DNA of 64,000 bases from an uncultured Planctomycetia bacterium (lineage in GTDB: Bacteria; Omnitrophota; Gorgyraeia; Tantalellales; Tantalellaceae), in assembly GCA_964572255.1 (NCBI GenBank), contig CAZNEE010000002.1, forward strand, positions 210,942 through 274,941, written 5' to 3'. Made by a program: the position numbers and the translations under genes. Numbering within the stretch: the stretch's first letter is position 1; every line of letters starts with the position of its first letter. This document shows, piece after piece, positions 26,293 to 59,800 of this stretch. The notes beneath the pieces are model-generated. The model did not search any database. It saw nothing but the letters and a program-made list of their open reading frames with translations, and was not told the origin of the DNA.

Positions 26293-26294
26293 AT

Positions 26295-28090: not shown

Positions 28091-28102
28091 ACGATCACCA
28101 TC

Positions 28103-28675
28103 TCAGTTCTTGGAAAGGCTTAAAAAATTCCTTAAAATATTCATTCCTTCTTTTGTAAGGATAGATTCCGGATGAAACTGCACGCCCGATAGCGGAAAAT
28201 CTTTATGCCTGATTCCCATCACCTCATTATCCTCTGTCCATGCCGTTAAAATCAAGGGGTCCTTTAAGGTTTTTGGATCCACTACAAGTGAATGATATCT
28301 TGTTGCCGTAAACGGTGACGGTATCCCGCTAAAGACATCTTCGCCGTCATGGTAGATCTGGCTTACCTTTCCGTGCATGATCTTATCTCCTCTGCCGACA
28401 TCGGCGCCATAAACTTCGGCTATGCACTGATGCCCCAGGCACACTCCAAGTATAGGTATCCTGCCGGCTAATTTCTTTATCACATCTTTTGATATACCGG
28501 CATCATCGGGCCTTCCGGGACCGGGCGATATTACTATTCTTCCGGGAGACTTTTTCTCTATTTCCTCAAGAGTTATCTTGTCGTTCCTGTATACTTCGAC
28601 CCTCTCGCCAAGCTCGCCAATATATTGAACGAGGTTATACGTAAAAGAATCGTAGTTATCTATGACGAGTATCAT
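28103..28675 (-). CDS. trpG: Anthranilate synthase component II (TrpG/PabA-type class I glutamine amidotransferase)
   Basis: [23 protein letters not shown]...GVCLGHQ (catalytic Cys)...FHPES (His-Glu); 190 aa. Confidence 0.85.
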
Positions 28676-39723: not shown

Positions 39724-42700
39724 TTAAGCAGATTCTACAAACTTTTTCAGGTTCGCGTAACGCTGGATAAGTTCCTGTTTGTCGTACTTCTCAGGCGGAT
39801 CTAACAGCGAAAAGATCAAAACTCTGGCTTCATCGGAATTTTCCGCTTTTATGTTAAGATCCTCAAGCATCGCCTTGGGCATCATTTTTAAAACGTGGTT
39901 ATTGCGCTTAAGGTAGTAATAATTCAAAAGCGCCAATGTAACTATTTCAGCAAGCGGATAATATACGTTTGAGAAAGAATATTCCCCGCTTGAGCTTTCA
40001 TTAATGTATGTAGCATATACGTTTTCATTGGATTCCATCCTCTCAAGATCTCCCCTTCCATCGGCTAATGAGAATACGAAAATTTCCGAATTTTTCTCCT
40101 TTATATATCCTTCAAGTTTTTTGGGGAGTTCTTTGGTCCGTCCCTCCTCAATGATCAGATTTTCAAGGAACGTCTTGAATTTTTTATCTTTCTTAAGTTC
40201 GTCAAAGATCTCCATGAGTTTAGCGCTTTGCCATCCGCCTATTTTTTCATCAAAAGCAAGCACCACTTTCTTTCCGCTTAAAAGCATCGAACGGACCGCT
40301 TCGCCTAGATTCCACCCCAACTCTTCAGGAACCCTGAGATCCCGAAGGATCCCCACATTCTCCTCTTCCACATTTTTCTCTTTTATTGGCGGGCTTTGTA
40401 CTTGTGGGGTGTCCCTTCGAGGACCGTCCCCGAGTTCGGTTAAGCTTTTACACATCTTTTCACTTGTGGTATAAAACCGCACAATTGCCTGCTGTTTTCT
40501 ACTCTCTCTGTTCCTCTGCCATTCTTCCAAAAGTTTGTCGTCTTTATATATGCGGCAATTAATTCCACGTAATTGAGTAAAATCTAAAACCCCTAGCAAG
40601 TCCTGATCTGAGACCTCTCTCCCTGTCCTGATAAAATTATCGATCAGATCAAGGGGCAAAATGATCTCAAAATCCCCATCTTTGGAAGCATCGCATAAAC
40701 CTCTTATCGCTTTTTCTATGCATCCGCCGTAATCTGAAATAGTGTAAAAATAATAACCGCTTATAATGACCCTTTTTATTCCGTCCAGTTTACTCCTAAG
40801 GATCTTTTCAGCATATCCATGCAGATCATCGGGATTTATACTTTGCGAGATATCAATGATTTCTCTTAAAATATTCTGTCGTGTCAATTTGCCCTTTACA
40901 CTTTTTTCCTTTTCTTTCTTTTTTTCATCAGTAAATCCATGAACATTCATCCAAAGAACCTGGTCGTTACCTATTTTTACTGGTGAGGTCTGTGCTTGTG
41001 GGGTGTCCCTTCGAGGACCGTCCCCAAGTCCGGTGATAGGCAGGCGGATAATAAAATTCGTCCATTTGCCGGGTTTGCTTTCGACGTCGATAGTGCCTCC
41101 GCAGCGTTTTTCTATATTTTCCTTCGCTATTGCAAGACCCAAACCGGTACCGTTAGGTTTGGTTGTAACGTAAGGATCGAATATCCTTCCTATCACATCA
41201 GATGGTATGCCTTCCGAGTTATCCCATAGAGAAATTTCCACGAACTTTCCTCCGCCGGTGACATAGGTTTTTACGATAAAAAAGCGTTTTTCTTCGGGCA
41301 AAGCCATTAAAACATGATAGGCATTCATCATGATATTCAATAGCGCACGCGACAATGCGGCTTCGTCAGTATTTATTAACACGTCTTTTTTGCCAAATTC
41401 TGTTTGTAAAACATAATCTTTACATCCCGAAAAATGTAAAGTTGACCTAATAACTGAATCCAGGCTCACTTCCCTCTTCTCGCGCCTGGATAAAGGTAAA
41501 AGTTCCGCCAGGATATTCTTGGCCAAAGTTAATGAATTGACAACATTTGTCACGAAAAAATCCTTCTCTTTCTTTGTCTTTTCCCTGTCAGGCAATCTGT
41601 CAAAGAGATCATTTAAAGTATCCTCCAAATGTTCATGCCCGAAAACACTCTGCGCTTTTTTCGCGATCTTCATGGCTTTTGCTGTAAGTACTCTATAATC
41701 TTTTTCCTTATAACTTTCTTCAGTAAATTCAACGACTTCATCGGAAAAAGACATTATTTCCTCGAATGAGGCGTCAGAAAATCCGTGTTTTTCAAAGGTA
41801 TTTTCCGGATAGGCAAGAGCGTTTAAACAATTTTTTACGTCATGCAATACGCCGCTTAAATTTTTAAGCACCGCAATACCCGTTCTATCCCCGGGAGTCA
41901 GTTCCCTCTCCTTGTCCAGGACCATCTCATCGGACAACACCTTGATCAGCTGAAGATAATATTTAAGTCCGGCCGGTATTTTTTCCCGATTCGCGGTGAA
42001 TCCCGGACCCAGTTTATTGATCTCTGACTGCAGGCGACCGGTATCATATTCGCCTACTACCGGGCTAAAGATCAGTTGAGGAAGAATTAATATGTTGCCG
42101 ATAGATGAAACCGCGCCTTCCGCCCCTGCTTTAAGCGCTCCAGCGATCTGGCTTTCATCGCCCTGAAAAGTCCTTATGACTTTTGCATAACTCTCTAAGA
42201 GGTTCAGATCTCCCGAGCTGTCTTTTACTGCGATTATCCTGTTTTTGAGCTCTTGAACAATTTTCGGTTGGATATTACGCCCTTTAACTTTATGGATTGC
42301 CGGGTTATTGTAAAGCACTAACGGCAAGGAAGACTTGACTTTTTTCATGTGCTCGGATATTTCACCATTACTTTTCAGGTAATATAAAGGGGCTAAAACG
42401 ATTGCATTAATATGCGGAAACTCCTCTATTTCCTTAATATTTTGAAGCGTTTCTCTTTCTGTATCGCCTGTTACATTGGCAAAGATAACAAGCCTTCCCC
42501 TTGATTCTTCAGCGAATATTTCTATAGCTTCCAGTCTTTTTTTGTTGGAAAGATCCGTAAATTCGCCCGTTGATCCCATAACAAGTATTGATTTAACGCG
42601 GTTTGATATCAGGTAGTTGATAAGTTGTCTTATCCCGGTTCTATCTATCTCGATCGTTCCGTCTTTTTCCATAAACGGCGTGACAACTGGAACTATGTTC

Positions 42701-45700
42701 TGGTTATAAACTAACTTTGCTTTTGCGGCTCTTTTTTCTATGGAAGTGGGCCTGGTGCCGAGGGAATCAAGGATTGATAAAGGATCCTCCCCGCTAAGCG
42801 GCGGACTTAAGTCGGTTGCTCTATATATTATCACTCCTTTATCCGTAACGCTTCTTTCAGCGAACCCAAGGTAAACCAATGTTCCCAGATCGCGTTTCAC
42901 CACATCAAGTGAAAGATGCCCATCGGCCGCTCTTCCCTTTGTCTTCTTCCTGATCGAATCTGCGGACACCCGCCTGTCCTTGAAATTTTTCTGCATGATG
43001 TTGTAGATCCCAAGCGGCGACCCGTCGGGTTTAGCCGGGTCTTTTTCGCCATCAGAAGATGACGCATCGTCGCTTTCTTTTGCCAAAGCGCCGAGTATTT
43101 TATCCTTCTCCGGATAATTTGCCGCATCAAGCAGGATCAAAGCAAGTTTTTGATCCTTATGTCCGAATACCGCGCTGATAATGGCTTTCTTGACTTCATG
43201 CCATTCGCCGGCACTGGCATGTTCTATGACAGCCGCGCTTAAAGAGCCTTCCGGGAAGATATGCCACTTGATCTGGTCGGCCATTTCATTGACGATGTCC
43301 TGAAATTCCTTGTATGCCGCGGGGTTATTTCTGAAATATTCCTTGAGCTGTCTCATCAGCTGATGGACTTTTCCCAATGAAGATCCGTTAGAGGTATATT
43401 GAAGCCCCGCGCCTGTCTCAGGGAACAGATTGGGAATGTCTTCCCTGCTGATCCTGAACCTATTTATCAAAAATTTCATGATCCTGCTCTTATTGTCCAG
43501 GTATATCTTCTTCAATCCTTCATCCATTACGCCGTATTCTTCAAGCAGGCCTGCTACACCCGTTACCAAGAGAAAGTTCCTCTCAATATCAAGCTCAAAA
43601 AGGTTTACTTCCCGCTCCATGAGAAAACTTTTATCATCCGAATACGAAACTATCAGTGAAGCGAACACGCTGTGAAAAAAACTTGTCTGCGCGCCTTTCC
43701 TTGGACCGTCCAGGATCTTTCCGGTCCAGGCATCTACGCCCGGCCTTCTGGCTACCCCCGGAAAAAGCGCCGCCTTTGAATCGACATTTTTATAGTCCGC
43801 CACGGACGGAACGATACGCAATTTATGCGGAAGAAAACAGAAAAAAAGACAAACCGATAAAAATGAGGCTTCCTTCAGGTAATCGCCGTCAAAATTCAAT
43901 GTATAATCGTACTGGTGTTTTATTATCCCCATCCGGAACAATTTATTCACCATCAGTGAGAATATGGGATAAACGGTCGGGGGCACCTTGAGGAAGTAAT
44001 CCCTTCTTCCCTTAAACCCGGATTTATCCATCGCATGCTCTGTTTTTACATTGGAGAAATAATTGGTCAGGATCACCCCCTCTATCGCATCTTCAAAAAT
44101 GATCCCTGCCCTGCCCACCTTGACCTGCATGTCCATCCCCATGGCGGGATACTGCCTTGAGATGCTTTCGACCGCTCTTAAGGCCGGGATGACTTCATTC
44201 CGGATCTGCTCCATGAATTCACCGGTAGCCGTATGATTTATCACTTCGTCAAAAATAAGCAGTTTAATATAAGCTTGCGTTCCCGAGGCCAGGCCTTCCA
44301 GGTCCAGATCTTCAAAGATCTCATTTGTCCTGATGAACTCTTCGGCATATTCTTCGTATATTTTTCCGATTATTAAAACAGCGTCTTTGCGTTCATCGGA
44401 ATTCATCAGTTCCGAAAGTATGTCGCGAAGCACCCTGTACACGTTTAAAGGATAGACATTTCTCTTGTTTAAAAGGCTTATTGCCAGGCTCAAGACTGAC
44501 TGCTGTTTGATCTTGCCTTCAAATTCCGAAAGGATCTCGGCCAGGTTGTCGATATCCCTTCTCGTGCCGTACGAATCGATCAATCCGTGGGTCGCGGCGG
44601 TTTTATCCGGCGGACTTACGATCCTGTCGATCAACCCTTTTTTGATGCGAATAAACCCTTCCAGAACATCTTCTATCGCCAATAGCCGGTCGTGCCTGTT
44701 TGATTGCCTTTGTATTATTTCCCTGAAAAACCTTTTATCGTTAATATCGACAAGTTCCGCCTCTTTGGTCTTGGTCGGAAATTGACGGAATATTTTCCGT
44801 AATGTCTGAAAAGCGTATGACGGATAGATGCCCGCTCCCGCCAGCGCTATTCCCGTCGCGAACACCATCTCGCGCACTTCGGGATCGGAAACATCTTCCA
44901 GCAGGTCATAAAGCGTTTCAAACGCCCAAGACAGATCCATATCTTTTTCGACTAATGCCTTGGCGAATTCGTAGACATAATAACGCGGATAAAGCGAACC
45001 GATCACCCTGGATGTTTTTTTCGACTGAAAAGATCTTTTGGCCAGCGCCAGCAATTCATCTTCTTTCTTCTCTTCGGTTTTCACCCTGTAAGGGCCCAAA
45101 CGATCCTCATCAAGCCATTCGACCTTTACCCTGAATCCGGCCAAAGGATTGTCTGTCTTTTTTAACGAAACGGTATTGGCTCTTTCCGATATGAATTCAA
45201 ATCCATTTGCCGCGAAAAGCCGGCCGAACCCCGTATCCTCGAATTTGACGCCTTCCGCAAGGCTTTTTACCGTCAGATCATGCCTTACCCTGAACGTGAC
45301 CGTGGCGCCGTACGGGATATAACTTGATATGAATTCATTTATCGCCAGGGCCACCGTATCACCTTCAAAATTTTTTCCCAAACATTTCAGGTAAATCCTG
45401 ATATATTCTTCGTCATCTTCGAGCTGAAGCTTTTCAGCTTCCCTTAAGATCAATTCCACCTGTTTTCCATGCACACTATCGTTCTCCACAAGGCGATTAT
45501 AATATCCGTATAATGCGTCGTAAAAAGGCAGCATTCTGCTTATGAACCCGCCTTTTCGGTATTTTTCAAAATCCCCTATTAACTCGGGATAATTCAAAGT
45601 GCCGCCCCAGCCCAATATGAATAAATTATCCTCGGCGATCTGCATTTCCAGGAAACCCGCCAGGATACTCCTGCCGCTGAAGGTATCCTCGAAATAGACC

Positions 45701-47838
45701 TTTAAATCGAGATGTTTGCGGTTTACATGATCTTTTTCGGCGGCGCGTTCAACCTCGAGCCGGTATTGTCCCATGGGGAATTTACTGCTCTTAAAATAGA
45801 ACGGACCTTTGGCTTCGAGCAATTTTCCTTCATCAAGAATATTTCCCTGGCCTGAGTCGCCGGGGTCATGATCATTTTTATCCTTACCCCGTCCCTTTAT
45901 AAGAGGTGCCGCGACAATCATCATTAAAATAGGTATTAGAACTGTCGCGATTAACGAAAACTTAAATATTCCGAATAACATAAATATCCCGCCGGATACA
46001 CCCGCAACGCCAAAAAGAAAAGTAATCATGGCGGAACCTTTTTCTGATCCTCCCGGCTTATTATTATCTTCCTGTTTTGCCTTATTTCTTCTTTCTTTCT
46101 CACGCTCTATTTCTTCCTGCCGGATCTTCCTGAAAGCCTCTTCAAGGCCCATTGCCTCTTTTTTCTTGGCAGCCGCCCGCTTCTGTTCTTTTTTCTCTTT
46201 TTTCCTCAGTCCTCTTTCGATCCTTTTCTTTCTGGCCTCATAAAATGCGCTGATGATCTCGCCGGGCTCCTTACCCAAATCCTTCTTCTCCCAATTAAGC
46301 ACATCCTCCAGAGCGCTTAAACTATATGCTTTGGATATGCCCGTGACAATACTGGCCGCATGCCTCCATTTGGCAGCCATGTCATGCGCCTTTGCCGTAA
46401 GTCCTCCCCGCTCTATGTATTTTGCCAGGACCTCAGAATTTATGATCTTCAGCTTTTCGAAGGCCCTTTCAAATTCTCTTTTGCTTACATAACATAAAAG
46501 AAGTTTTATAAAGCCGGGTAAAATGTGCCGCGCATGGTCCTTGCTCTCCTCAAAATAAAGCTTTATCAAAGTTACGGCATTATCGAACATCCTATCCGCC
46601 CTATCAAAATAACTTTGCTGGACAAAAATATAAGCAAGGCGTGTGTTAACTCTTACAACATGCCCTATGGCCGCATCCCTTACCTCTTTGATGTCTCCAT
46701 ATCTGATCAACAGTTCAAACGCCGCCTTTGCCGTGTTCTCTGCCTTGTCCAGATACACCTTGTCCTTCTCTTTCAGCCATTTATTACGGAAAGGGTACGC
46801 CAGTCGATCATATGTTTTTATCAAATGCTGGATATCTTCGACGGTTTCGTCCGGTTCAGCGGGATCCCCAGGCTTGATATCCCTGTATCTGGTCAATATC
46901 TCAAATGAGTTGTTTGCCGCGGATTCCGCCTTGATCAAATATGTATCATCCTCTCCGGCTACCCATTTATTGAGGAAAGTATGCGCCAGGGCATTGTAGT
47001 TTCCTATGATATACTGAATATTTTTGGCGGAAACTTTCGATCTGTCAAAACTTTCCATAAGCATGTCTGACGTTCTTGCAACACGTAGAGCTTCAGCGAT
47101 ATTCCCTATATTAAGGAAAACGTTCGCTAATTCGTTATGGAGAGATACTGCCCGATCAATATGCCGCCCGATCACTTCCGGTGTTCTATCCCGAAAATCC
47201 TCTAATATCCCGACCAGGATATCGCTTGACTGTTTTGCTTTATAAAATTTGCCTTTGGAAAGATGCTCCTCCATCTGTGTCAGTAGCTCGACGATGTCTT
47301 CCTCTATTTCTTTACTATCATACTTATTGATGGTTCTATCTGTTGCGTTTTTCTCTTCAAAAATTTCCTGCGCGTTATCTTCTTCTCTTTCAGCTTCTCT
47401 TCTTATCGACACGGCATTTTCATCGTCAGGATCTATCAGCGCTTCGTACTGCCATGAATATTTTTGATCATTCCCGATATCATACTCAATGGTGCAGGGA
47501 ACTCTTAATTTTCCCTGATCTTCACCCTTTTCATCAAAACGCAGGTGAAGCATTACATCTTTGCCGTTATGGGTGAAAACCGGGAACAGATGATCTCTGG
47601 CATCCCTAATATTAAAACTGTTCTTTTTGAGGGATTTCATAAGGCCCCTTAAATGGAATTCAATGAGAGCTTTGTGTCCGATCGCAGGATAAACTAAGGG
47701 ATTGGATACGCTCTGGACCTGAAGAGAATATTTCCTCCCGGAAGCAAGATCAGGATCCGCCCAGAGGATATTCTGGCAAGAGAACGTGATCACAAGCAGG
47801 ATCGCTATGATTTTTACGAATATTTTTCTTCTTCCCAT
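39724..47838 (-). CDS. Giant mosaic membrane protein (2704 aa): signal peptide, helical TPR/Sel1-like repeats, Lys/Glu-rich coiled coil, 2-TM hairpin, DapA/N-acetylneuraminate-lyase-family aldolase domain, histidine-kinase-type ATPase (HATPase_c) domain, and tandem C-terminal modules separated by a GDGPRRDTPQ linker
   Basis: One uninterrupted 8115-nt ORF. N-terminus MGRRKIFVKIIAILLVITFSCQNILWA is signal-peptide-like. TM hairpin MITFLFGVAGVSGGIFMLFGIFKFSLIATVLIPILMMIVAAPLI sits at ~45890-46030. Aldolase domain IVPVVTPFMEKDGTIEIDRTGIRQLINYLISNRVKSILVMGSTGEF...VLYNNPA...IIAVKDSSGD at ~41850-42740. ATPase N, G1 and G2 boxes LLNIMMNAYHV / WDNSEGIP / GTGLGLAIA at ~41040-41400. Separated from the downstream giant gene by 4 nt. 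Confidence 0.85.
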   Translation of the reverse strand: MGRRKIFVKIIAILLVITFSCQNILWADPDLASGRKYSLQVQSVSNPLVYPAIGHKALIEFHLRGLMKSLKKNSFNIRDARDHLFPVFTHNGKDVMLHLRFDEKGEDQGKLRVPCTIEYDIGNDQKYSWQYEALIDPDDENAVSIRREAEREEDNAQEIFEEKNATDRTINKYDSKEIEEDIVELLTQMEEHLSKGKFYKAKQSSDILVGILEDFRDRTPEVIGRHIDRAVSLHNELANVFLNIGNIAEALRVARTSDMLMESFDRSKVSAKNIQYIIGNYNALAHTFLNKWVAGEDDTYLIKAESAANNSFEILTRYRDIKPGDPAEPDETVEDIQHLIKTYDRLAYPFRNKWLKEKDKVYLDKAENTAKAAFELLIRYGDIKEVRDAAIGHVVRVNTRLAYIFVQQSYFDRADRMFDNAVTLIKLYFEESKDHARHILPGFIKLLLCYVSKREFERAFEKLKIINSEVLAKYIERGGLTAKAHDMAAKWRHAASIVTGISKAYSLSALEDVLNWEKKDLGKEPGEIISAFYEARKKRIERGLRKKEKKEQKRAAAKKKEAMGLEEAFRKIRQEEIEREKERRNKAKQEDNNKPGGSEKGSAMITFLFGVAGVSGGIFMLFGIFKFSLIATVLIPILMMIVAAPLIKGRGKDKNDHDPGDSGQGNILDEGKLLEAKGPFYFKSSKFPMGQYRLEVERAAEKDHVNRKHLDLKVYFEDTFSGRSILAGFLEMQIAEDNLFILGWGGTLNYPELIGDFEKYRKGGFISRMLPFYDALYGYYNRLVENDSVHGKQVELILREAEKLQLEDDEEYIRIYLKCLGKNFEGDTVALAINEFISSYIPYGATVTFRVRHDLTVKSLAEGVKFEDTGFGRLFAANGFEFISERANTVSLKKTDNPLAGFRVKVEWLDEDRLGPYRVKTEEKKEDELLALAKRSFQSKKTSRVIGSLYPRYYVYEFAKALVEKDMDLSWAFETLYDLLEDVSDPEVREMVFATGIALAGAGIYPSYAFQTLRKIFRQFPTKTKEAELVDINDKRFFREIIQRQSNRHDRLLAIEDVLEGFIRIKKGLIDRIVSPPDKTAATHGLIDSYGTRRDIDNLAEILSEFEGKIKQQSVLSLAISLLNKRNVYPLNVYRVLRDILSELMNSDERKDAVLIIGKIYEEYAEEFIRTNEIFEDLDLEGLASGTQAYIKLLIFDEVINHTATGEFMEQIRNEVIPALRAVESISRQYPAMGMDMQVKVGRAGIIFEDAIEGVILTNYFSNVKTEHAMDKSGFKGRRDYFLKVPPTVYPIFSLMVNKLFRMGIIKHQYDYTLNFDGDYLKEASFLSVCLFFCFLPHKLRIVPSVADYKNVDSKAALFPGVARRPGVDAWTGKILDGPRKGAQTSFFHSVFASLIVSYSDDKSFLMEREVNLFELDIERNFLLVTGVAGLLEEYGVMDEGLKKIYLDNKSRIMKFLINRFRISREDIPNLFPETGAGLQYTSNGSSLGKVHQLMRQLKEYFRNNPAAYKEFQDIVNEMADQIKWHIFPEGSLSAAVIEHASAGEWHEVKKAIISAVFGHKDQKLALILLDAANYPEKDKILGALAKESDDASSSDGEKDPAKPDGSPLGIYNIMQKNFKDRRVSADSIRKKTKGRAADGHLSLDVVKRDLGTLVYLGFAERSVTDKGVIIYRATDLSPPLSGEDPLSILDSLGTRPTSIEKRAAKAKLVYNQNIVPVVTPFMEKDGTIEIDRTGIRQLINYLISNRVKSILVMGSTGEFTDLSNKKRLEAIEIFAEESRGRLVIFANVTGDTERETLQNIKEIEEFPHINAIVLAPLYYLKSNGEISEHMKKVKSSLPLVLYNNPAIHKVKGRNIQPKIVQELKNRIIAVKDSSGDLNLLESYAKVIRTFQGDESQIAGALKAGAEGAVSSIGNILILPQLIFSPVVGEYDTGRLQSEINKLGPGFTANREKIPAGLKYYLQLIKVLSDEMVLDKERELTPGDRTGIAVLKNLSGVLHDVKNCLNALAYPENTFEKHGFSDASFEEIMSFSDEVVEFTEESYKEKDYRVLTAKAMKIAKKAQSVFGHEHLEDTLNDLFDRLPDREKTKKEKDFFVTNVVNSLTLAKNILAELLPLSRREKREVSLDSVIRSTLHFSGCKDYVLQTEFGKKDVLINTDEAALSRALLNIMMNAYHVLMALPEEKRFFIVKTYVTGGGKFVEISLWDNSEGIPSDVIGRIFDPYVTTKPNGTGLGLAIAKENIEKRCGGTIDVESKPGKWTNFIIRLPITGLGDGPRRDTPQAQTSPVKIGNDQVLWMNVHGFTDEKKKEKEKSVKGKLTRQNILREIIDISQSINPDDLHGYAEKILRSKLDGIKRVIISGYYFYTISDYGGCIEKAIRGLCDASKDGDFEIILPLDLIDNFIRTGREVSDQDLLGVLDFTQLRGINCRIYKDDKLLEEWQRNRESRKQQAIVRFYTTSEKMCKSLTELGDGPRRDTPQVQSPPIKEKNVEEENVGILRDLRVPEELGWNLGEAVRSMLLSGKKVVLAFDEKIGGWQSAKLMEIFDELKKDKKFKTFLENLIIEEGRTKELPKKLEGYIKEKNSEIFVFSLADGRGDLERMESNENVYATYINESSSGEYSFSNVYYPLAEIVTLALLNYYYLKRNNHVLKMMPKAMLEDLNIKAENSDEARVLIFSLLDPPEKYDKQELIQRYANLKKFVESA
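40386..40439. repeat. Copy 1 of a ~54-nt direct repeat (31-nt identical core CTTGTGGGGTGTCCCTTCGAGGACCGTCCCC) inside the 2704-aa gene; it encodes the linker LGDGPRRDTPQ
   Basis: About 48 of 54 nt are identical to the copy at ~40981-41034 (~595 nt upstream on the plus strand), and both copies are in the coding frame. Coordinates are ±2 nt. Confidence 0.7.
40981..41034. repeat. Copy 2 of the ~54-nt direct repeat inside the 2704-aa gene (encodes TGLGDGPRRDTPQAQTSP)
   Basis: See copy 1; the repeats flank a ~190-aa module that appears duplicated in tandem at the C-terminus of the protein. Confidence 0.7.
41040..41400 (-). other. Histidine-kinase-like ATPase (HATPase_c / GHKL) domain in the 2704-aa protein, preceded by a possible degenerate DHp helix containing His (FGHEHLEDTLNDL)
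   Basis: N box LLNIMMNAYHVL, D/G1 box ISLWDNSEGIP, G2 box KPNGTGLGLAIAKEN and a C-terminal GGTIDVESKPGKWTNFIIRLP; boundaries approximate. Confidence 0.6.
41850..42740 (-). other. DapA/NAL-family class I aldolase (dihydrodipicolinate synthase-like) domain embedded in the 2704-aa protein
   Basis: VTPF...DG.ID...LI..L...V..I.V.GSTGE (compare GTTGE), YNNPA (compare the E. coli DapA Tyr133 loop YNVP) and a Schiff-base lysine in IIAVKDSSGD (compare IVGIKEA); boundaries approximate. Confidence 0.6.
46550..47250 (-). other. Four or more tandem ~68-aa alpha-helical repeats (TPR/Sel1-like) in the N-terminal exported part of the 2704-aa protein
   Basis: Recurring units ...NYNALAHTFLNKWVAGEDDTYLIKAESAANNSFEILTRYRDIK... 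/ ...TYDRLAYPFRNKWLKEKDKVYLDKAENTAKAAFELLIRYGDIK... / ...NTRLAYIFVQQSYFDRADRMFDNAVTLIKLY...; boundaries approximate. Confidence 0.5.
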
Positions 47839-47842
47839 AGTC

Positions 47843-50800
47843 TTACGCGTTGGTCTTTAAGTACTCCGCTATCGCCATGTATTCTACCGTCCCGGCTGTG
47901 ATCTGCTCGGCATCCGGAATACCTAATTTAATAGTTATAATGCCTCCCGTTTTGCACCTGTTCGCAGTTTCATCCCAGCATAAAGCAAGCAGTTCATCCG
48001 CACTTAGCCGGCTCATGTCTATATTAGGAATCGATCGATAAAACTCCGCTAACTCTTCCTTATCGAATTCCAATAGCCTGTACCGCGCCAGTGAGAATAG
48101 AACGATCTCTAACAATGGATAATAAGAATCCATTCCCAGATCTTTATCATTAATTTTTGTTATGACAGAATCCGTATACGGCTTTAGACACTCGAATTCT
48201 TCATCAAGCGCTATAACTATCAGATCTTCATTCTTTACATGTTTTTGGTCTTTCATGTAATCGAGTGTCATTTCGGTGATATCGCCGGTATGGATCACGA
48301 TATTCTCCAGCCATTCCTTTAAGAGCGGGTCTTCGCTGCGCATAAGGTCGCTTAAAGCTTTCCTCACCTCATCCGCTCTTCCGTTGCCCAATCTTTTATC
48401 AATTAAAATACCGACTCTTTCCTTCTTCTGGTAAACCGCACTTTTTACCTTGGCCGCTAAGTCCTCTCCTTCCGCAATAGATCCCGGAGATATCCTTGAA
48501 CTGGCTATGAACATGCTGTTCGTAAGCCGGGGAACGGCTTTTCTTATGCTGTCCATGATCAGGTCTTTATCTGATCTTTCAATATCCGTAACTTCTTCTT
48601 CGATCAGTTCTTCAAAAGTTCCGTCAGGATGACTTATGAATATCCTGTCCCTGCCGTTCACCTTAGCTCTGTACAGGGCCTTATCGGCTCTTGTTACAAT
48701 GGGATCGATCGCTTCCTGTTCCATCTTGTTAAGCAAACTACTGTTCGCATTTTTTTCTTCCTCCGTTTCAAATGAACTTTCTTTTTCTTCTTTCTCCCTG
48801 ATCCCTCTTATAAAACTTTCCTTCTCCTTGTCCGTAAGCTGGGCTATACCCATACTCCATGAAATATCAATATCCCTGACTATTTCCTTTCCTTCTTCAT
48901 CAACAGTTGTTCCCTGGATCTCAATACTGCGTACGGTATTCAATATTTTTTCCGCCGCTTTTTTGACTTTGTCCAATTCATCAAATATTATTATCAGAAA
49001 TTCCTCTCCGCCGTATCTTATGAAGAAATCGGTCCCTCTTTTAAGCTCATCATCAACTACTGACGCGATCGCCTGGAGCACCTCATCCCCCTTGGGATGT
49101 CCGTATGTATCGTTCACGCCTTTAAAATGATCGATATCGCACATGATAGCGCACATCGGGGTGGGGTTCTGCGATCCCTTCTCTTCATCTCTTCGCTCGA
49201 AAGCGCGTATATAGCCCGGGATCTCATTAATAAGGTATCTTCTGTTATGCAGATCGGTCAATTCGTCTCTGAGAGTTTCTTCTTCTAATCTGCGGCTCTT
49301 TTCCTCAAGCTTTTTCTGCAGCTGTTTTAGCTCGGTAATATCAGTGAAAACTCCCAGCACGCCGTTTCCCAGACGCTCTTTACTTACCTGTACATGAATG
49401 GTTTCTCCCTCTCTTACGTTTGTCTCTTCCACGGATATGGCTGTATTATTCTGATAAACTCTCAAGTCATCGGCTTCATATTTTTCAGCATCATAAGATT
49501 TCCCTAGTTCAAATTTGTCTCTGATCTCGATATCGGTTAACCCCTCGACCTTTTGAGTTTCCGGATCCAGCCCCAACATGCTGTAAAACCTGGAATTCGC
49601 ATATTTCACGCGCATTTTTCTGCCGTCAAATTCTTTATAGAACACAGCCGCGGGTAAATTTTCCAGCATTGCGCCTATATACTCTTCTCCCTTTTTTATC
49701 TCCTCCATCGCCTGGATCAATTTTGTTATATCTCTAAATGATGTCAGGACTATAGTTTTGCCGTCCTTTATTATCGTGTCATCGGTTTTTGCATAGATGA
49801 TGGTGCCGTCTTTCTTTACATATCTTCTGCCTTCTTCCCTTTGCGGAACATCTTCCCCCCTTAGACGCGCTTCAAAACGTCTTCTCGCGTCTTCAACCTC
49901 ATCGGTATGCATAAAATCAAAGATCTCTTTGCCGATAATCTCATCCTCATCATATCCCATCAATTCACACCAATATCTGTTAACCTGCTTGATTATGCCT
50001 TTTTTTCTGCCGTCTTCTTCTGTAACCTCTAACACGTGGAACCCGATCGGGGAATTATCATAGAACTCTTTATATTGTTTTTCGGAAGCCATAAGCTCTC
50101 TATTTACTTCATCGAGATCTCTTGCTGCGGATCTTAATTTGTTCAGGACCCTCTGGCCGAGAACGCCTGCTATTACAAAAACAATTAAACACGCCGCCCG
50201 CAACGCAAGATTGTATATATCCGTTAAAGGAAGTAATCCCTCAAGGATATCTCCCTTATAAAAGAGATATGCGTCCCCGATAGACCTAACAGCCCAGTAC
50301 AATGCTCCAAAAATAATAGCGGCATATTTAATGCTTGATACTTTAGGCACCGCCCCTATCTCCGTAAACTGCCTTTTGTCGGAAACAAAACGCCCCTTAA
50401 CCTCTATGCCTTTTATAAGCCTCGTGAACGCTTCGTTGCCTTCTTCGGATTTTCTGTCCTGCAAACCATGTGTAAGTTTTTGGCCGCCAAAACCAAGAAC
50501 TATCTCGTTGTACTCAATAAGATTGAATTCAGATTTGTTAAGTCTTTCCGGAGGAAGATTCTTTTTAAGATAGGATATGAACTCGGCCGCTGTATAGTGT
50601 TTCCCCAGTTTCTTTTTTGCCTCATGGGCCAACAGCCTTACGCTGCTGCCGGCACCTCTTAAGAATTGATGAGGGTGAATGTCGAATTTTACCAGATCAC
50701 CATATTCATCTATCATATCGAAAGATTCCGGCACATGATATTTTTTAAGATAATCGATAATATCGTCGGCTTCACTATCCGGATCCAGATCGCCCTCTAT

Positions 50801-53800
50801 TTTTGCTTTTTTGACTGATTCTGACAGGCGGGAATAGAACTGTTCTCTCTCTTCATGGAAAAGCGCATGTTGGTTCTCAGATAAGGATTGTATCAGATAC
50901 ACTTTCTCGCTATTAGCAAACCCTCGTATATTCTCATTGTCCTCCAATATTTTTATTTTTTCTCCGCCTGATGCCGCCAGATCCGTTTCTATTATTTTCA
51001 CTCTTGCCTCTCGGCCGTCTTTTGTATAAAGCGGCTCGCCAACAGCATTATAAAAAGCAAGAATGGTCCCCTCTTCTTCCTCTTTTCCTATGATCCCTTC
51101 GGTTATCTGATCCGCTGCTTCCTTATCGCGGAAAAGTTTTCCTATCAGGCCTCCCGTTTCTTCATCCGGGGCCGGCCGCTTTGATAAAACATTTTTCTTC
51201 GCAGCTCTATCCTTGAACCAGTCAATAAGCACTTTTATGCCGGAGATCGGCCATAAGAGCGCGATCGGAAGGAGAATGGCCACAGAAGCAACAAAGGCAA
51301 TAAAAGGATTGGATTTTACATAATCCGCAATACCCGCATACTCTATAATATATTCAAAAACTTCGGCCGAAGTATCGGGCGCGAACCAGCATATGGCAGC
51401 GCTGATGATCATCCCCAAAGTCGCGGCCATGAAATGCCTTCTGTTAAGCATTTTTCTGTACTTCTGCACGTATTCCTCTTTATACGCGTTGGTCTCTCTG
51501 CCCTCCGCCAGATTTCCGATATCTTCCGCTAATTCTTCGGCTGAATAACGCTCTCTTGGGTTCAATTTCAGGCACTTCATTATAACGGCCTGGAGGTTAA
51601 GGCTGATCTTGCTGTTTATTTCTTTGGGAAGTTTCGGAGGATCGAATTTAAGCATGATAAAATCATCCGTAAGTTCGTTCGCGAAAGGTTTTTCGCCCGT
51701 AGCCATCTCATAAAGAAGTATTCCCAACGAGAAGATGTCCACCTTGTATTCTTCCGCGGGTTCTTCCCTGTAATCAATGTACGGAATACCGTGTTTATGC
51801 AGGAATTTGATTATCCGCCTCTTGTAAGACTCATCGGATTCCATGGGTTTTTCGGTCACTGCGAGCGTGACCGACTGTTCGGGCGAGGCATATTCCGGAG
51901 TTCCCAAAAATATATTCTCCATCGTGTCCCTTATGGACCCCGTCTTCTTTATGTCATACCCCCTTGCCGCCAGACCCAGGTCGGCAATGAGCGGCTGATA
52001 CTCGGTAGCTGTATTCAATGCGGCAACCCGTCTCATCAGGACGTTCATCGGCTTCAGGTCCCTGTGGATGATACCCAACGAATGCATATAAGCGATCGAA
52101 TCCGCTATATGCCTGAACAGGCCCACGACCTCTCTCTCGTCATATTTCCTGTACTTAAGACTCTCGATATAATCCCCGAGGGTCGGGCCTTCGATCATTT
52201 CCATGGAATAGAAGGGAATGTTGTGTTTCTTGCGGTCATATACATCGTGTACTTTGATGATCCCTTTATGCGACAGCTCTCTCATATACCTTATCTCTCT
52301 CAGGAACCTTTCCCTCTGCCTCTGGCCGCCCTGTTTCATGACTTTAAGGGCTATGGTCCTGCCCATTTCCCTGTCAAAAACAAGAAAAACGGAACACATG
52401 CCCCCGCTGCCGATCTCCTTGATGATTTCATATCTGTCCTCAAAGACGTCCCCGCTTTTCAGGCCCGTGTTTATATACGCGTTATCCAGTTTTGAAGAGG
52501 ATGCGCTGTCGGGGATCTCCTTCTCCTGAAAAGCCGCAAATAAGGTCCCTCCCAAAACAGTTTTATCGCTGAGATAAGATTTGGACGAGATGTTCTTAAA
52601 TAATTCCAATACTGATCCCTGGCGCGCGTAATCGAGTATTCCCCTTCTTCTTATCGTGCACCAATCCAAAAGCCTCTTCTCGTTCTCCGTCGGCCTTGGC
52701 TTATTTTTCAGCCTTGCGATGTCCAGCTTTAATATATCGTCCATGATCAATATATTGCAGGCATGGGCTTCCTTGTCCACCCATACCTTGTTGAAATCGA
52801 TCGCATTCCCGAGGAACAAGATCGACTCATGCGGAAGCGTTATAAGTCTCGAAAGAAGTTCTTCTCTCCCTTTAATATCATGTCCTGCAGCGGCGTGTTC
52901 CAGCTGTTTCGCGCCGAAAATATTTATCTTAACCTTGAGCGGGTCGTATCCAAGATCCGGGAATATCTTCTTTACGGTTTCCCTGTCAAGTTCATAAGAT
53001 GCAAATTCCCTCTCCCCGTCCGCAATAACGTCTATCTGGAGATCATCCGCCGACCTATCAAGCCAGAAATAACTGCCGGAAGTATAGACCCTGAATGCCT
53101 CTTCATTATTTATCAGTTCATTTTCGATCAGGCGCGGGATAACAACCTCTTCTATTCCCTCTGCCATATATCCTATTCTGTCCTCTACATCCTTCAGGGA
53201 CAAAGGTTCAGTGTTCTGTCCTCTTTTATTTGAGAATTCCACAAGACGCAGCCAGTTTTCCATAGAACCCGATTTATCCGCAGCTTTGAGGCTGTCCATT
53301 ATCGCTGTGCGCGGCCATGATGTCACAACTCTTTGCTCTTGAGGGTCTACCCCCAATCTGTACGGCTTATGATACTTGCCTAAGAGAATATCGGGGCCGT
53401 TGAGGACATATCTTAATGCTTTTTGAAGTTCACCTTTATATAAGGTGTTGGGTTTTTTCGGGTCCTGGATCTGGTCATCCCTGTCGGGATAATTCTCGCG
53501 GAAATGGTCCTGAAGAAGAACGATCGTTCTGTAATGGCCCAGGATGGAACAAAGGATCTCATGAAGCAGGTATTCGTCTACCAAGGGATGTGTGTCGTTT
53601 TCCGGCGGGCCGCGCTGCTTTAATTTGGAAATTACATCTGTTGCCACGTAAAGCTCGTTATCGTCTTTAAGATGATCTCCGTTGCCCAGCATAAAATCAT
53701 TCTCGGCTTTGACGATAATGGAATCAAACCCGTATATCTTGATCTGTTCCTTTCTTTGTTCCGCTAAAAATCCCGCCAATTTCTCTCTTTTATAGTCCGG

Positions 53801-56800
53801 GATCTTGATACCGTTTTCCCGCAGGAACTCGTCCAGATTTGAGCTGTCCTTTCTGTTTCTCTTGAACTGCCTGAAAAATTCAATAAACCTCCCTATCTTA
53901 TCCTTGGGCAGTTTTATCTCATTTCCCTGAAGGAACGCGGTCAACATCCTTTCCTCGTCCTTCTTGTTCTTTAAGAGGTCCCTGATCCTCTTGATCTCGC
54001 TTATCTCGCCTTCGGTCAGCCTCTTCACCCGCTTAGAGCGGTAGCCTTCATGCGCCATCTTCTCTTCCTTGTCCAGGAAGGATTCAAGGAGCTGAAGTAT
54101 CCGGTCGTTATAATCGTCCGTGACATCGTTCTTTCTGATCCTTTCACGTTCCCGATCGAATATATTCTTTGAAGCTTTTCCCTGGCTGATAAAACCGTCC
54201 GGAGTTGTTTTTGAAACTTCGAAAATGGTCACCGTTATCTTGTTCCCCCTAACTTCACTGTCAAAGGTTTCTTCCTTGCCATGCGAAAATCTCATTCCGT
54301 CTCTCCAGCTTTCCACCAATAAAGTTACATCCTTATAATCTTTAGCGATACGGCTGAGCCTCAATAGAAATATCCCCCTTAATTCGACAGGGATAGATAT
54401 TTCCGATAATATTTTTTCAGATTCGGTATTGCGCAGTATGCCGCCGTTGAATATCCTGTAAAGTTCCATTTTAGACGGACCTTCGTCTTCAGATATTATC
54501 CGTATGCCCGGCCTGGAATCTGACCTTCTTCTGACCGCCTGGAGTTTTATTGAAAAATCAACATCCTTATGATTGCCCCACACATGATCACGCAAATTCT
54601 TATTTAGCTCATAGATCACATGCCGGGCAAGTTCCTCCCTGTTTGTGGGAGTTCTTTTGACACTGAAAAATATCTCGTATTCTGTTTTAAAGCTTTCTTT
54701 CTCTTCGAAATCAAACTTCGAAATAAACTTTTTTAATTCACCAAAAGAGTCCTGATCATTATTTACCATGTTCTCTTTACTTAATGTAAATGTTTCAAGA
54801 ATTTCTATATCCTCCCCCTCATCTTGTTTCTCTTTATCCTGAGGCTGTTCTTTTGGTTTTGACTTTTTCTTTAAGATCCATACTGCGATTAAAAACCCTA
54901 TGATCGGCAATAAGAACCCGGCATCGAAATTGACCTTTTGACCCCCCATGAAACAGCCGCCTGAATGATGTGAATGGTCACCTTCGCCCGGAGCTTTGCC
55001 CACATGGACAGTCCCGGGATAATATGAATAATCTCCGTCAGTCTGCCCGTCAGGCATCTCTGTCCTGATAGCCAGATCATAATTTCCCGAATACATGTCA
55101 GACGGAATGTTTATGATGATCGAGGATGTCGATACGCCCGGCACAAAGAATTCTTCCGATCCTATCATGATCGTGTAGCCGTCGGCTGAACCCTGCAGGG
55201 ATCCGGTGTATGGATCCCAGGTAAGCTCAAAAGTCCTGTCATTGTTGCTGGCTGTGACGCTTGTGATCTCGGGCGAGAAAGGCCTCGCATCCGTTGACTC
55301 CGCCCAATGCCGGATAGAATCAGCATTAGCATCAGATATTATAAAGCCCATATCATCCTGCCAGAAAAGCCCGCCATCCACTCCGCTGGCGTATATTGCG
55401 GAATATTTATCCCCAAAATTTGTAGGCTCAAGTTCTCCAAAAATGACCGGCCCGTCAAGCGACGAACCCCAGTTCGTCAAAGGATCCGCTATCGGGAACC
55501 AAACCTCCATATAATCATAATAATGCGGCTGGTAAAGATCCAGGCCCAGATCGGTCCAGTTGTCCATGAGCGTTTCCCTGTTCCTCGCGCCCACTGTGAC
55601 CACTGACCCCGGATCCTGATTATGTATCATCTGAACATGCAGATCCAGAAATCCGTGCACTTGCGCCATCGTCAGAGATGTCAATTCCGGTATCTCTTCG
55701 GGTTCGCTCATCACGTCCCAGGCGACTATTTCCGGACGGTCCGCGTAATCATTGACGAATTGTGCCATTAAGGCAAGTATTGCGTTGATCTTCGCGGGTT
55801 CACTTATTATGTCCGGATGTTCTCCCACAGGATTAGGGCCTTCCATGTCGATGCCGTCCGCGATCAAATAATCGTATAATACCGGCATCAATCTTATACC
55901 CAGAACATTGGCGGCTTCGATCAGGGTATCCATGTCTTCATAAACATGGGCGCTAAAGCCCGTAGGTGTACCTGTTCCGTCAAAAACTATTCCGCTTCTT
56001 AGATCACAGAATAAAAACACTCTCACAGTACAGCCCTTGAAACGATTAAGCTCCTGCAGGAGCAGTTCTCTTCTGGTAGCTAAACCTACATAATCCTCGC
56101 CATTGGCCCCGTCCCCGATATCGTAGCCGTATTCTATCCACAGGTTCGCTCCGCGGGCAAAATCAGAACCGGGCGTTAAGTTCTCGATGATCTGCTGAAC
56201 ATGATCGATCCTTTCAAGCCTTCCGTCAGTGTGATAAATAAGGGTTTCGGTCAGATCCCAGGAAGCGTCATATTCAAATGTACGGACCGTTCCGTCCTCC
56301 AAACGTTCGGTATTCAGATACATCCTCCCGTTAGCTAGATGGTAAGAAGCGCCTGCCTTATTGGTGTATTTCCTTATCGCAAACCCCGGCGTAGCTGTCT
56401 CCTGTACGACCGTTTCATGCACAAATGTCGGATCTCCCCCCGCATCATATCCCCTGATAAAGTGAATAATATCCGTGCCCGCGTAATATTCAGGTTCCTC
56501 GTAACTGCCATCAGGCCATGTTATCCTGTCGATCCTGCCGGACGTTCCGTTGCCGTAGAAATCAAAATCCTCTCTATGCACCACTGTATCAGCCAGGTAG
56601 TCATCCAGCTCATAATCAGGCGTATCGTGGTCCCAATCCTCCAAATATGTCTCTGTTTCGATAAAGCCGGACGGTGAATAGTACGTGTAATCGACCTCCG
56701 CGGCCGCAAGGACCTTGAACGGAAATAAAAGGAAAAGTACGGTGACGAGAAGCATTTTCGTGCCCGAATTCCTGAATGCCCTAAAGACCGCCTTAAAAAT

Positions 56801-59800
56801 GTTCCCTATCAATCGAAATGTCTTGGAAACTGATCTTGATAAAATCCCTGTAACCTTAAATACAAAGACCGCCGGGTAATACCATTTGAACAGGAAAATC
56901 TTATTGGCGAACATGGTCGTTGTGCGGATCTTTCCGTCCGGCTTCTCTATCGGAAATACGCATATATCGTTCGCAATGATCTCTATTGCCGCGTTGACCC
57001 TTATGTATTCCTTGGTTTTCCTGTCCTTGAACATATTCGCGTTGATCGCAAAATTCCATTTCCTGTATTTCCTTTGAATATCATCCTTTTTGAACGGATC
57101 AGGCTCCTCCAGCCACTCCTTGAGATATCTTTTGGCGGCGAATATCCTGCGTATAAGCCTTATATTGGGAATTAAAAGGATCAACGCCCCCACTCCTATT
57201 ATAAAGAGGAAAGATGAAAGCATGGACCACGCACCCGAACCTGCAATTAAAAACGGCGCTGAAAATAAATATCTATAATTCATCTTATTGAGCCTCGCCA
57301 TCTGCTTAAGGACCTTTTCATCCTTCTCATCCAGCGAATAATCTGCGGCCAGGGCTTTTATTAATTCCCTTTTCTCGCTTTGTTTAAGGTTCGCAAAATT
57401 TCCTTTATCTTTAAATCCTTCCATGACAGCATAAGTCTCATTTTTCAGCGTGCCTTTGCGCGCTATATACTCGAAATCGACCGTATCGATTATAAGTAAC
57501 AGGTCCTGCGCGGCTTTGAATAAAGGATTAGTGATAGGTTCTTTTGAAGTGGGTTCTTTCTTTGTCGTTTCTAAAAAGACTGCCATGAAAAAAGGAGCAA
57601 AATATCTGTAATAGTCGGGTGATCCCCTGACTATGTTTGCTTTTGCTTCGAAATCTTCATATGTTGAATTAAATGCCTGCATCTTGGCATCGCTGCCGCC
57701 TTTTCCTTTCGATCTTAGGTCAAGGTATCTGTCCCTGTAATCCGCCATGAGTTTGGATAATCCTTGCGCGTCTTCACACTTCCTCTTTATATAGTGCGCA
57801 AACGCAAGAGCCTGATCTTTGCTCTCCCGGGCTATCCTTTTATTCGGATGATTGATCTTATTCAGATGTTCCGGCATGCCCAGAGCGGCCTGCCTGACCT
57901 TTCTGAACTCGGGCTCTCTGACCCAGTAGGAATATGCTATCGCCTGGGCCGCGCCAGAGACGGTTATCCTTCCGGCCTTTTTCAATGTTATGAAAGGCCT
58001 GTTCGTGATCCAGCGTTCGTTGTTCTCGATCGCTTTTATCATGTCTTCAGCCAACCGCTTGAATTCCCTGTTTCTGCGATCGGTGCTCTCCCTCAATTCT
58101 TTTCTTACAAATTTAGAGTCATTATTGCGTATGCTTCCTGCCGCTTCCTGTCTTTCTCTGAGAAGTTCACCGGCATGTTTTAACACTCTTTTCGCTTTTT
58201 CTGCCAATCCTATTTCAAGTAATTCGCAGGCGGCTTTGATATATATGATCGCGAGCACCTTGACCTTTAAAGGCGATCTCTCGAGATCCTCTATGCATGA
58301 CTTTAAAGTGTTTACAAATCTTCTTTCAGTCTTTCTTCTTAATCTGACCTGCTCTCTTAAGTCCTGCATGCCGGGCAGGAAGGTATGTTTAGCTTCTTCC
58401 CGGGACTTCTTCTCTCTTTTGTCTATATACTCGGTTATCTCGGAGATCTTTTCCCTTATTCTCGGAATATTTATTTTTTCTTCATCTAATTCATAATCGA
58501 TCCTTTCGTCATACCCCCTGTAGACCTGCCATAAAAGAAAGTATCTCGCTCCCTGGTGTCCCGGATGAGCGTATCTTCGCCCGTCCTTAGGATAATATTT
58601 TTGAAAAATGTAAAAGGGCGACCATCCCTTCCAGATCTTCTTGCCGTCTTTTGCCTCATCAAAAACCCTTTTAGGGAGCCTGATCTTCTTCAGCCTTCGG
58701 GGCCTTGCTATCCTTTTCTTAAGAAGGGCAACCTGTTCGCCGGCTATCCTGTTAAGAATATCTCTGACCTTCTTATACGCTTTTGAATCTTCGTAGTTCT
58801 TTAGGTCTTCCGCCTCTTCGACCAGTTTTACCACTTCATCAAAATCCGCTTTTATCAATTTAGCGAAAGCGGGTATTCTTGCAACCGGCTGGTTTTTCTC
58901 TTTCTTTCTGTCCGTTTTTACATCCCCGGCAATTTCGTCAATATCTTGCTTCGCTGAAGCTGTCGCTTCCTTTACTTCTTCTAATAATTCCCCCAATCTC
59001 TTTTCATGTTTTCTGATCCGTCCCTGCAGATACTCTTCACGATATCTTTCATGCTTGATCCTCCATTTCAGAAGTCTTATTTTCTTCTGCAGTTCGATCC
59101 TTTCTGAGATCTTCACGTAAAGTTGGGTATGATACTCAAAGATCGTGATGAATAGATCGTTGTCTACCGGTTCTTCCCTATATAATCTTTCCATGTAGTT
59201 ATAGGGGATTTCTCTTTTTAGCTGTTCGCTTGAGACAGGAGGTTCTGACCTCCCGTAATTATTTTCATTCGCTGCATTGTTCCCCCCGGCGAAAAATTGG
59301 CATATAATAAAGAGGAAGGATAGAACAAGGGCGGGTATCATAAACCTGCCCACCGCACCTTCAGGCAAAGAACCGCTAGTAAATATTGAAGCGGCAAAAA
59401 CTGTTAAAAATCCCAAAACTCCTATGTAACTAAAACCTTTATCGGCTCTTTGCTGCTCTATTTTTTCTTCAATATTCCTTATATAAGGCTCCAATTCGGG
59501 AGCGATATCCCCTCCCAGGCTGACTATAAAATTACGTAAATGGCTCTCCAGCTTTTCTCCCGAATATTTCGGCAGTTCTTCCAAGAGGGCGATCCTGAAA
59601 TTGATATAACTCTTATGAACCACCCGTGTTATTTCCGCCATGAAAGCGGCTATCCTGTCTTTTTTCACATCATCCAAAGGCGTGCTTTTCAGAAGATCCC
59701 TGAATGCCTTGATCAATTTTTTCTCTTTTTCCGGGGACGGAAGGGTTTTGTTCGTCTTCTCTATATCGTCGTAAAAAGACTTCCATTCGGGGCCCAGTTC

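Follow-up and report, generated by a model that had tools for sequence, protein, structure and literature searches.

The window analysed here, a stretch of 64,000 nt of contig CAZNEE010000002.1 (positions 210,942 to 274,941 of the forward strand) from a bacterium assigned to Omnitrophota, contains on its minus strand a single open reading frame (ORF) for a protein of 2,704 residues, in which a class I aldolase module of the DHDPS/NAL superfamily, complete and of the Schiff-base type that depends on pyruvate or another 2-oxo acid, precedes a histidine-kinase-type ATPase domain. The identical 2,704-residue protein was called on six contigs, the longest of 498,635 bp, and an assembly artefact is therefore discounted. 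Its three most hydrophobic 19-residue windows (aa 6–24, 607–625, and 629–647) support membrane association, in agreement with an initial annotation of the region, which had described an aldolase domain embedded in a large membrane protein.

The aldolase module and its clade

The Pfam family DHDPS (PF00701) matches aa 1715–1970 (E 2.8e-30; 105.5 bits against a cut-off of 22.1), corresponding to window positions ~41929–42696 and falling within the interval 41850–42740 in which the initial annotation had placed a DapA/N-acetylneuraminate-lyase-type aldolase with intact catalytic residues. The characteristic motifs are GSTGE (aa 1755–1759), YNNPA (aa 1843–1847), and IIAVKDSSGD (aa 1868–1877), the last of these containing K1872. 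In phmmer searches of sequences in the PDB, N-acetylneuraminate lyases were the best matches (8u8w, E 5.8e-20), followed by many DHDPS enzymes. According to these alignments for NanA, and to a BLASTP alignment for Escherichia coli DapA—the reference sequence of which is consistent with the 292-aa 1dhp match—S1756/T1757 align with S47/T48 of NanA and T44/T45 of DapA, Y1843 with Y137 and Y133, K1872 with K165 and K161, and the Tyr of the PLYY motif, the inter-subunit residue of the tight dimer, with Y110 and Y107, respectively. An AlphaFold2 model of aa 1690–2290 has a predicted local distance difference test score (pLDDT) of ~95 over aa ~1709–1990, and Foldseek matched it to solved DHDPS/NAL structures (2rfg, 5c54, 1dhp, and 8u91) with target-normalised template-modelling (TM) scores of 0.81–0.87 over ~300 columns, indicating that the C-terminal helical subdomain is also present. 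Thus, the completeness of the domain is borne out by family match, structure prediction, and inspection of the active site; neither the Schiff-base Lys nor the catalytic Tyr is substituted, and the profile match is to PF00701 rather than to an unrelated TIM-barrel family. The module is most probably catalytically competent.

An exhaustive HMMER search with aa 1700–1988 against 1.84 billion representatives returned 6,176 matches, 31 of them with E<1e-30. The closest relatives (40–60% identity) are mostly proteins of 1,200–5,900 residues carrying the domain at very different positions, with a few stand-alone proteins of ~300 residues (40–43% identity) interleaved among them; by sequence, the domain is placed in a separate clade of the superfamily. 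At least 20 further long proteins contain a member of the clade, combined with varying partners that include Aminotran_1_2, Methyltransf_28, PALP, NAD-epimerase together with HEAT, and Rrf2, and BLASTP and phmmer comparisons show that only the aldolase domain is common to the long relatives, with P0030 (itself flanked by other giant genes) and P0031 also having aa 1604–1712. This stretch of ~110 residues, to which no family is assigned, seems to form a single mobile unit with the aldolase domain. All 36 aligned members of the clade and family retain the Schiff-base Lys and the YNNP Tyr without exception, and the TGE(F) motif (TGE being nearly invariant), KDSSG, and QGDE are strongly conserved across the same alignment, which argues for purifying selection on the chemistry. 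A relative of 57% identity (P0007) keeps the same motifs.

The neighbourhoods of three stand-alone relatives suggest what the clade may do. One (P0037) adjoins F_bP_aldolase and an ILVD_EDD dehydratase, another (P0039) adjoins an FGGY kinase, and the third (P0046) lies in a cluster with PFK, a GHMP kinase, an FGGY kinase, and an AP_endonuc_2 (xylose-isomerase-like TIM) protein. From these, sugar or sugar-acid catabolism is the probable role of the stand-alone members. Stand-alone relatives beside the ILVD_EDD dehydratase and sugar kinases also recall the dehydratase–aldolase pairs YagF/YagE and YjhG/YjhH of E. coli.

Table 1. Features of the 2,704-residue protein and its upstream neighbour, in window positions.
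Feature	Position	Strand	Remarks
Whole ORF, mosaic giant protein	39724..47838	-	2,704 aa, single ORF
N-terminal cap, aa 1–149	47392..47838	-	Signal-peptide-like hydrophobic segment aa 6–24 (...ILWA/DPD)
Tight pair of transmembrane-like hydrophobic segments, aa 607–625 and 629–647	45898..46020	-	K/E/R-rich stretch before the pair
Pre-aldolase region, aa 1604–1712	42703..43029	-	Conserved only with P0030 and P0031
DHDPS/NAL-family class I aldolase domain, aa 1713–1989	41872..42702	-	TIM barrel and C-terminal helical subdomain
K1872 codon	42223..42225	-	Predicted Schiff-base lysine within IIAVKDSSGD
H-box helix, aa 1991–2009	41812..41868	-	LKNLSGVLHDVKNCLNAL; H1999 is the best phospho-acceptor candidate
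Helical insertion, ~79 aa, aa 2010–2088	41575..41811	-	Between H-box helix and second DHp helix; holds FGHEHLEDTLNDL
Second DHp helix, aa 2089–2119	41482..41574	-	...NILAELLPLSRRE; aligned to the LLxFSR helix of related kinases
HATPase_c catalytic domain, aa 2158–2268	41035..41367	-	N box NIMMNA, F box IFDPY, and G2 box GTGLGL intact; G1 box DNSEG
60-nt direct repeat, copy 1	40975..41034	.	Encodes linker GLGDGPRRDTPQAQTSP
Domain X, aa 2285–2470	40429..40986	-	Bracketed by the two linker repeats
60-nt direct repeat, copy 2	40381..40440	.	Encodes linker ELGDGPRRDTPQVQSPP
C-terminal cap domain, aa 2490–2704	39727..40371	-	Motifs VVLAFDxKxGG, YYPLAEIV, ...LKxxxxSA-stop
Upstream giant gene, 3' part	47843..63898	-	Pkinase, 2x PAS, GGDEF; C-cap at its end

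The junction with the kinase core

Similarity to other aldolase modules stops at ~aa 1988, H-box-like sequence starts at ~aa 1991, and in the AlphaFold2 model aa 1982–2009 form one continuous helix, along which the confidence falls from ~96 to ~56; together, these observations point to a fusion without a linker. Farther downstream, the Pfam family HATPase_c (PF02518) matches aa 2158–2268 (E 1.5e-17; 64.4 bits against a cut-off of 26.4) with the N, F, and G2 boxes intact, and NCBIfam models of the AtoS, ZraS, and VirA type match aa 2090–2269. The initial annotation was therefore right to place a histidine-kinase ATPase next to the aldolase domain.

That annotation had also drawn attention to a His-containing helix preceding the ATPase. 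Such a helix exists at aa 2066–2078 (FGHEHLEDTLNDL), enclosed by an extra helical insertion of 45–70 residues in the hairpin of the dimerisation and histidine-phosphotransfer (DHp) region, and its H2068 and H2070 lie at the canonical distance of ~104 residues from the N box, but the segment showed no resemblance to an H-box even at very lax thresholds, and both residues were rejected as phospho-acceptors. By comparison, a profile built from the H-boxes of 26 related kinases, all of the form xAGIAHE[IV][KR]NPL, found a sole match in the 2,704 residues, at aa 1995–2007 (SGVLHDVKNCLNA; 2.1 bits, E 0.007; maximum over 300 shuffles, 1.4 bits). Indeed, LSGVLHDVKNCLNAL around H1999 resembles the xAGIAHEIKNPLNxx of related kinases. 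The profile match favours H1999 as the better phospho-acceptor candidate, although some doubt remains.

HATPase_c was absent from each of the 148 closest aldolase relatives, searched with both the protein's own catalytic and ATP-binding (CA) domain and a CA profile, indicating that the aldolase–kinase junction is lineage-specific and, as far as these sequences tell, a single occurrence. The search for further fusions of this type that had been envisaged thus yielded none among these relatives and, with partners also varying in the at least 20 long proteins, a conserved role of the domain as a sensor is not upheld. Literature searches likewise returned no example of an aldolase–kinase fusion, and nothing relevant on trigger enzymes.

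Mosaic construction, topology, and genomic setting

Much of the protein has no recognisable relatives. Residues 150–600 and ~650–1600 (window 42739–45900) gave zero Pfam, NCBIfam, or PDB sequence matches, and PDB sequence searches with the N-terminal 1,700 and the C-terminal 415 residues found nothing meaningful. A whole-protein homologue search recovered only the protein itself at full length, the K/E-rich stretches having probably swamped the word filter, and a whole-protein search of the genome contigs gave only unrelated HATPase_c matches. Three parts, namely the N-terminal 149 residues (29% identity), HATPase_c (29%), and the C-terminal ~210 residues (39%), are common to P0002, a Pkinase-containing protein of 2,504 residues. 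The leader conserved with P0002 ends in ...[LV]WA/DP[DE], and P0042 has the same leader.

The C-terminal cap (C-cap) domain of ~205 residues is always found at the extreme C-terminus: in this protein, in its upstream neighbour of 6,377 residues (where the domain lies at 47846–48553, minus strand), in P0002, and in four metagenome ORFs (loci L012–L015). Its motifs are VVLAFDxxLGG, an invariant YYPLxEIV, and LLPxAExxDxQELxxxYAxLKxxLxxA-stop. The domain gave no Pfam match, no PDB sequence match, and no significant fold match, and its model, made from three sequences, shows an alpha/beta fold at a pLDDT of 69.5. The C-cap may represent a family-defining targeting or assembly module. The tails ending in "...AA" of long aldolase-clade proteins were considered as further copies and rejected, with the C-cap hidden Markov model (HMM) finding only P0001 and P0002. 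One of the four metagenome ORFs (L012:29-10687, plus strand; at least 3,553 residues, with the C-cap at its end) has two Ribonuc_L-PSP (RidA-type enamine/imine deaminase) domains near its C-terminus, another case of a small metabolic enzyme embedded in this class of proteins.

The protein thus appears as a mosaic, with an aldolase unit (aa 1604–1989) common to the P0030/P0031 lineage, and with an N-terminal cap, HATPase_c, and C-cap common to the lineage of P0002 and the upstream neighbour. In P0002, HATPase_c directly abuts the C-cap; in the studied protein, domain X (~186 residues; a 594-bp module), with no detectable relatives, is inserted at this place. The insert is bracketed by 60-nt direct repeats of 87% identity, with a 26-nt exact core and a spacing of 594 bp, which encode GDGPRRDTPQ linkers, and it looks like the footprint of a module insertion by linker recombination.

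The N-termini of the studied protein and of most long relatives resemble Sec signal peptides with AxA-type sites. In many relatives, no hydrophobic segment other than this signal peptide precedes the aldolase domain; six of these have the domain beginning 50–85 residues from the N-terminus.

The start codon of the ORF lies 4 nt past the stop of the upstream giant gene, indicating that the two are probably co-transcribed. The upstream product (6,377 residues on the full contig, 5,351 of them in the window) contains Pkinase, two PAS, and GGDEF domains, with no Pfam match in its N-terminal ~2,660 residues within the window. The rest of the window is occupied by housekeeping genes (cinA, ligT, recA, alaS, the his and trp operons, lysC/hom/thrC, valS, lepA/lepB, and others), and RNA scans of the window found one tRNA-Pro only. 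All named best matches of the AlaRS encoded in the window (50–66% identity) are from Candidatus Omnitrophota/Omnitrophica, including Ca. Makaraimicrobium and Ca. Aadella.

Interpretation and comparison with known systems

The reading that we favour, with moderate confidence, is that an Omnitrophota mosaic protein carries, as cargo, a DHDPS/NAL-type aldolase that is competent for catalysis and derives from a clade with roots in the metabolism of sugar acids; this module may also serve the kinase as input. On this reading, giant multi-domain proteins have repeatedly taken up members of the clade as "cargo" enzymes; in the present one, the C-terminal helix of the aldolase leads, with no intervening linker, into the H1999-bearing helix of a kinase core of the NtrB/AtoS type. 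K1872 would still form an enamine with a 2-oxo acid, and a 2-keto-3-deoxy sugar acid would presumably be cleaved or made. DHDPS-family enzymes are tight dimers, and histidine kinases are dimers as well, so that, in this one protein, the dimerisation or ligand state of the aldolase could set the geometry of the kinase helical bundle.

Several observations weigh against this reading, most of them concerning the kinase. In the G1 box, Ser takes the place of the first Gly (DNSEG), the kinase-core model is of low confidence (pLDDT 50–78), and H1999 is separated from the LLPLSR helix by 115 residues, compared with 47–72 in related kinases. The check for a matching phospho-acceptor His/DHp domain had a divided outcome, with the weak H-box match at H1999 on one side and, on the other, no Pfam HisKA match even at E<=10 in three sub-fragments of aa 1975–2135. 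No Response_reg/receiver domain was found in the protein, in its upstream neighbour, or in the other scanned genes of the window, the scan having covered the window apart from four trp-region ORFs (25645–28675), with the rest of the genome outside it. The HATPase_c of P0002 (aa 2180–2285) looks degenerate, with ISTGWPFAK in place of the G2 box and no H-box seen upstream, suggesting that kinase function may not accompany every copy of the "HATPase_c + C-cap" cassette. With respect to topology, a crude count of three hydrophobic segments before the domain would put both modules, aldolase and kinase, outside the cytoplasm, a paradoxical location for an ATP-dependent kinase and one hard to square with kinase function; the same localisation puzzle has been described for glycolytic domains (West-Roberts et al. 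2023, bioRxiv 10.1101/2023.11.21.568195). Furthermore, the link to sugar acids comes from the three neighbourhoods of stand-alone proteins of 40–43% identity, and the assignment to Omnitrophota covers the host of the studied protein, with the taxonomy of the other long clade members outside it.

Other explanations differ in what they take the domain to be or to do. Among enzyme identities, a fused DapA (4-hydroxy-tetrahydrodipicolinate synthase) for lysine/diaminopimelate synthesis might be suggested by the NCBIfam dapA model (TIGR00674), which is the best NCBIfam match by bits (99.2), and by the aspartate-pathway genes lysC, hom, and thrC in the same window. However, judged by the NCBIfam equivalog cut-offs, which were used for family identity, 99.2 bits is far under the 206.15 required; the loop following YNNP (YNNPAIHKVKG) is three residues longer than the YNVPSRTG of DapA; the position of DapA Arg138 falls in a BLAST gap with His/Lys nearby, leaving no clear counterpart; and clade relatives are found in sugar clusters or giant proteins rather than in dap operons, making this identity hardly credible. 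An N-acetylneuraminate (sialic acid) lyase module is very improbable as well: NanA enzymes are the top solved-structure sequence matches, as noted above, and GSTGE and the hydrophobic residue past YNxPA are NanA-like, but identity to NanA is only ~25%, the scores of 68.9 bits (NanA, PRK04147) and 67.9 bits (nanA, TIGR00683) compare with cut-offs of 281 and 382, and the sugar-binding G189-Y190-D191-E192 of NanA aligns with G-D-E-S here and with QGDE in the clade consensus. The archaeal KDG aldolase model gave 67.9 bits against a cut-off of 390. By these measures, the domain is classed as neither DapA nor NanA, with both identities rejected, leaving the sialic acid that had been proposed as a ligand without specific support. 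It is decidedly improbable, too, that the module is an evolutionary by-product, recently shuffled and carried in a fast-evolving giant gene without a selected function. The mosaic of parts with different relatives, the direct repeats around the inserted 594-bp module, and the reportedly overwhelming sequence uniqueness of Omnitrophota long proteins would fit such an origin, but the 8.1-kb reading frame is intact, all catalytic residues and the ATP-binding boxes are retained, and the preservation of the motifs in P0007 indicates that a domain diverged to 57% identity has kept them.

With respect to signalling, the aldolase fold could be a dedicated sensor, that is, a purely ligand-binding input in which a 2-oxo or sugar acid, possibly bound covalently at K1872, switches the kinase and turnover is irrelevant. 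The seamless junction, the single helix predicted across it, the intact N, F, and G2 boxes, and the natively dimeric character of both module types are what such a sensor would display. It is nevertheless unlikely: the junction is unique, partner domains differ among relatives, the catalytic residues are kept as well as in the stand-alone members, unlike in a pseudo-enzyme sensor, the DHp region is aberrant, and no response regulator was seen nearby among the scanned genes. A sensor role is thus possible, but without support from conservation. Of the earlier proposal of a ligand sensor or a co-opted enzyme, the embedded aldolase beside a kinase ATPase stands, whereas neither sialic acid as a ligand nor H2068/H2070 as phospho-acceptors finds support. 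More speculative, and quite unlikely, is a wider role in which the aldolase module is exported and the clade comprises class I aldolases that need no cofactor and are presented by giant Omnitrophota proteins outside the cytoplasm, where they would process 2-keto-3-deoxy/nonulosonic-type sugar acids from host or prey surfaces, with the catalytic state in the present protein gating the fused kinase (a "catalytic receptor kinase").

On the favoured reading of an active cargo aldolase, Omnitrophota-type giant proteins would use a discrete, recurrent DHDPS-like module, beyond the glycolytic domains already reported, with its catalytic residues apparently under selection wherever the module lands. 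A cofactor-free aldolase domain also provides a cloneable, assayable handle on the activity of the enzymes in giant proteins and on the side of the membrane at which they work, and the seamless fusion to the H-box helix offers a natural test of the ability of a dimeric metabolic enzyme to drive such a kinase core. In addition, the cap domains and linker repeats may serve as handles for classifying giant proteins and tracing module shuffling. The available evidence does not make this a new principle of signalling, and the phenomenon of long enzyme-bearing proteins in Omnitrophota has already been described.

Those proteins, named "Archaeovorins" and "multi-enzyme metabolic clusters," have been catalogued at thresholds of at least 10 thousand amino acids (kaa) and, for "giant," at least 30 kaa; the enzymes embedded in them include triose-phosphate isomerase, PGI, FBPase, PGM, FBP aldolase, and PPDK, HATPase_c recurs as one of their most frequent domains, and a signal peptide or transmembrane segment is present in 94% (West-Roberts et al. 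2023, bioRxiv 10.1101/2023.11.21.568195; Nielsen & Lui 2026, bioRxiv 10.64898/2026.06.07.730766). Neither preprint mentions a DHDPS-type module in its main text or describes the N- and C-terminal cap domains, and literature searches pairing DHDPS with Omnitrophota returned nothing relevant. The present protein resembles them in its Omnitrophota host, its signal-peptide-like N-terminus and transmembrane segments, its combination of unrelated enzyme and signalling domains on one chain (here DHDPS and HATPase_c), and its tandem arrangement with another giant gene. It differs in size, with only 2,704 residues (6,377 in the neighbour), and, compared with giants of the Archaeovorin/dockerin type, in having no HEAT, dockerin, glycosyltransferase, or C39 peptidase domain (Pfam, E<=0.1).

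With the DHDPS/NAL class I aldolases, namely DapA, NanA, KDG aldolase, and YagE/YjhH, the domain has in common the fold (TM 0.81–0.87) and the catalytic set, that is, the Ser/Thr of GxTGE, the YNxP Tyr, the Schiff-base Lys, and the inter-subunit Tyr. However, it scores under every NCBIfam equivalog cut-off, has the clade's own signature (YNNPxIH, KDSSGD, and QGDE), and forms aa 1713–1989 of a 2,704-residue protein, whereas those enzymes are soluble proteins of ~300 residues.

As in kinases of the NtrB/AtoS/ZraS type (HPK4-like), an H-box, an LLxxSR second helix, and N, F, and G2 boxes are recognised, and the last helix of the input domain runs into the H-box helix. In those kinases, the input is a PAS, GAF, or HAMP domain, whereas here it is an enzyme fold; further differences are the missing Pfam HisKA match, the DHp insertion of 45–70 residues, the DNSEG form of G1, the two additional domains past the ATPase, and the lack of a nearby response regulator among the scanned genes. 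A conceptual parallel is offered by trigger enzymes and enzyme-derived sensor domains, which physically link the fold of a working metabolic enzyme to a signal output, with the difference that the link here would take the form of a covalent fusion to a histidine kinase.

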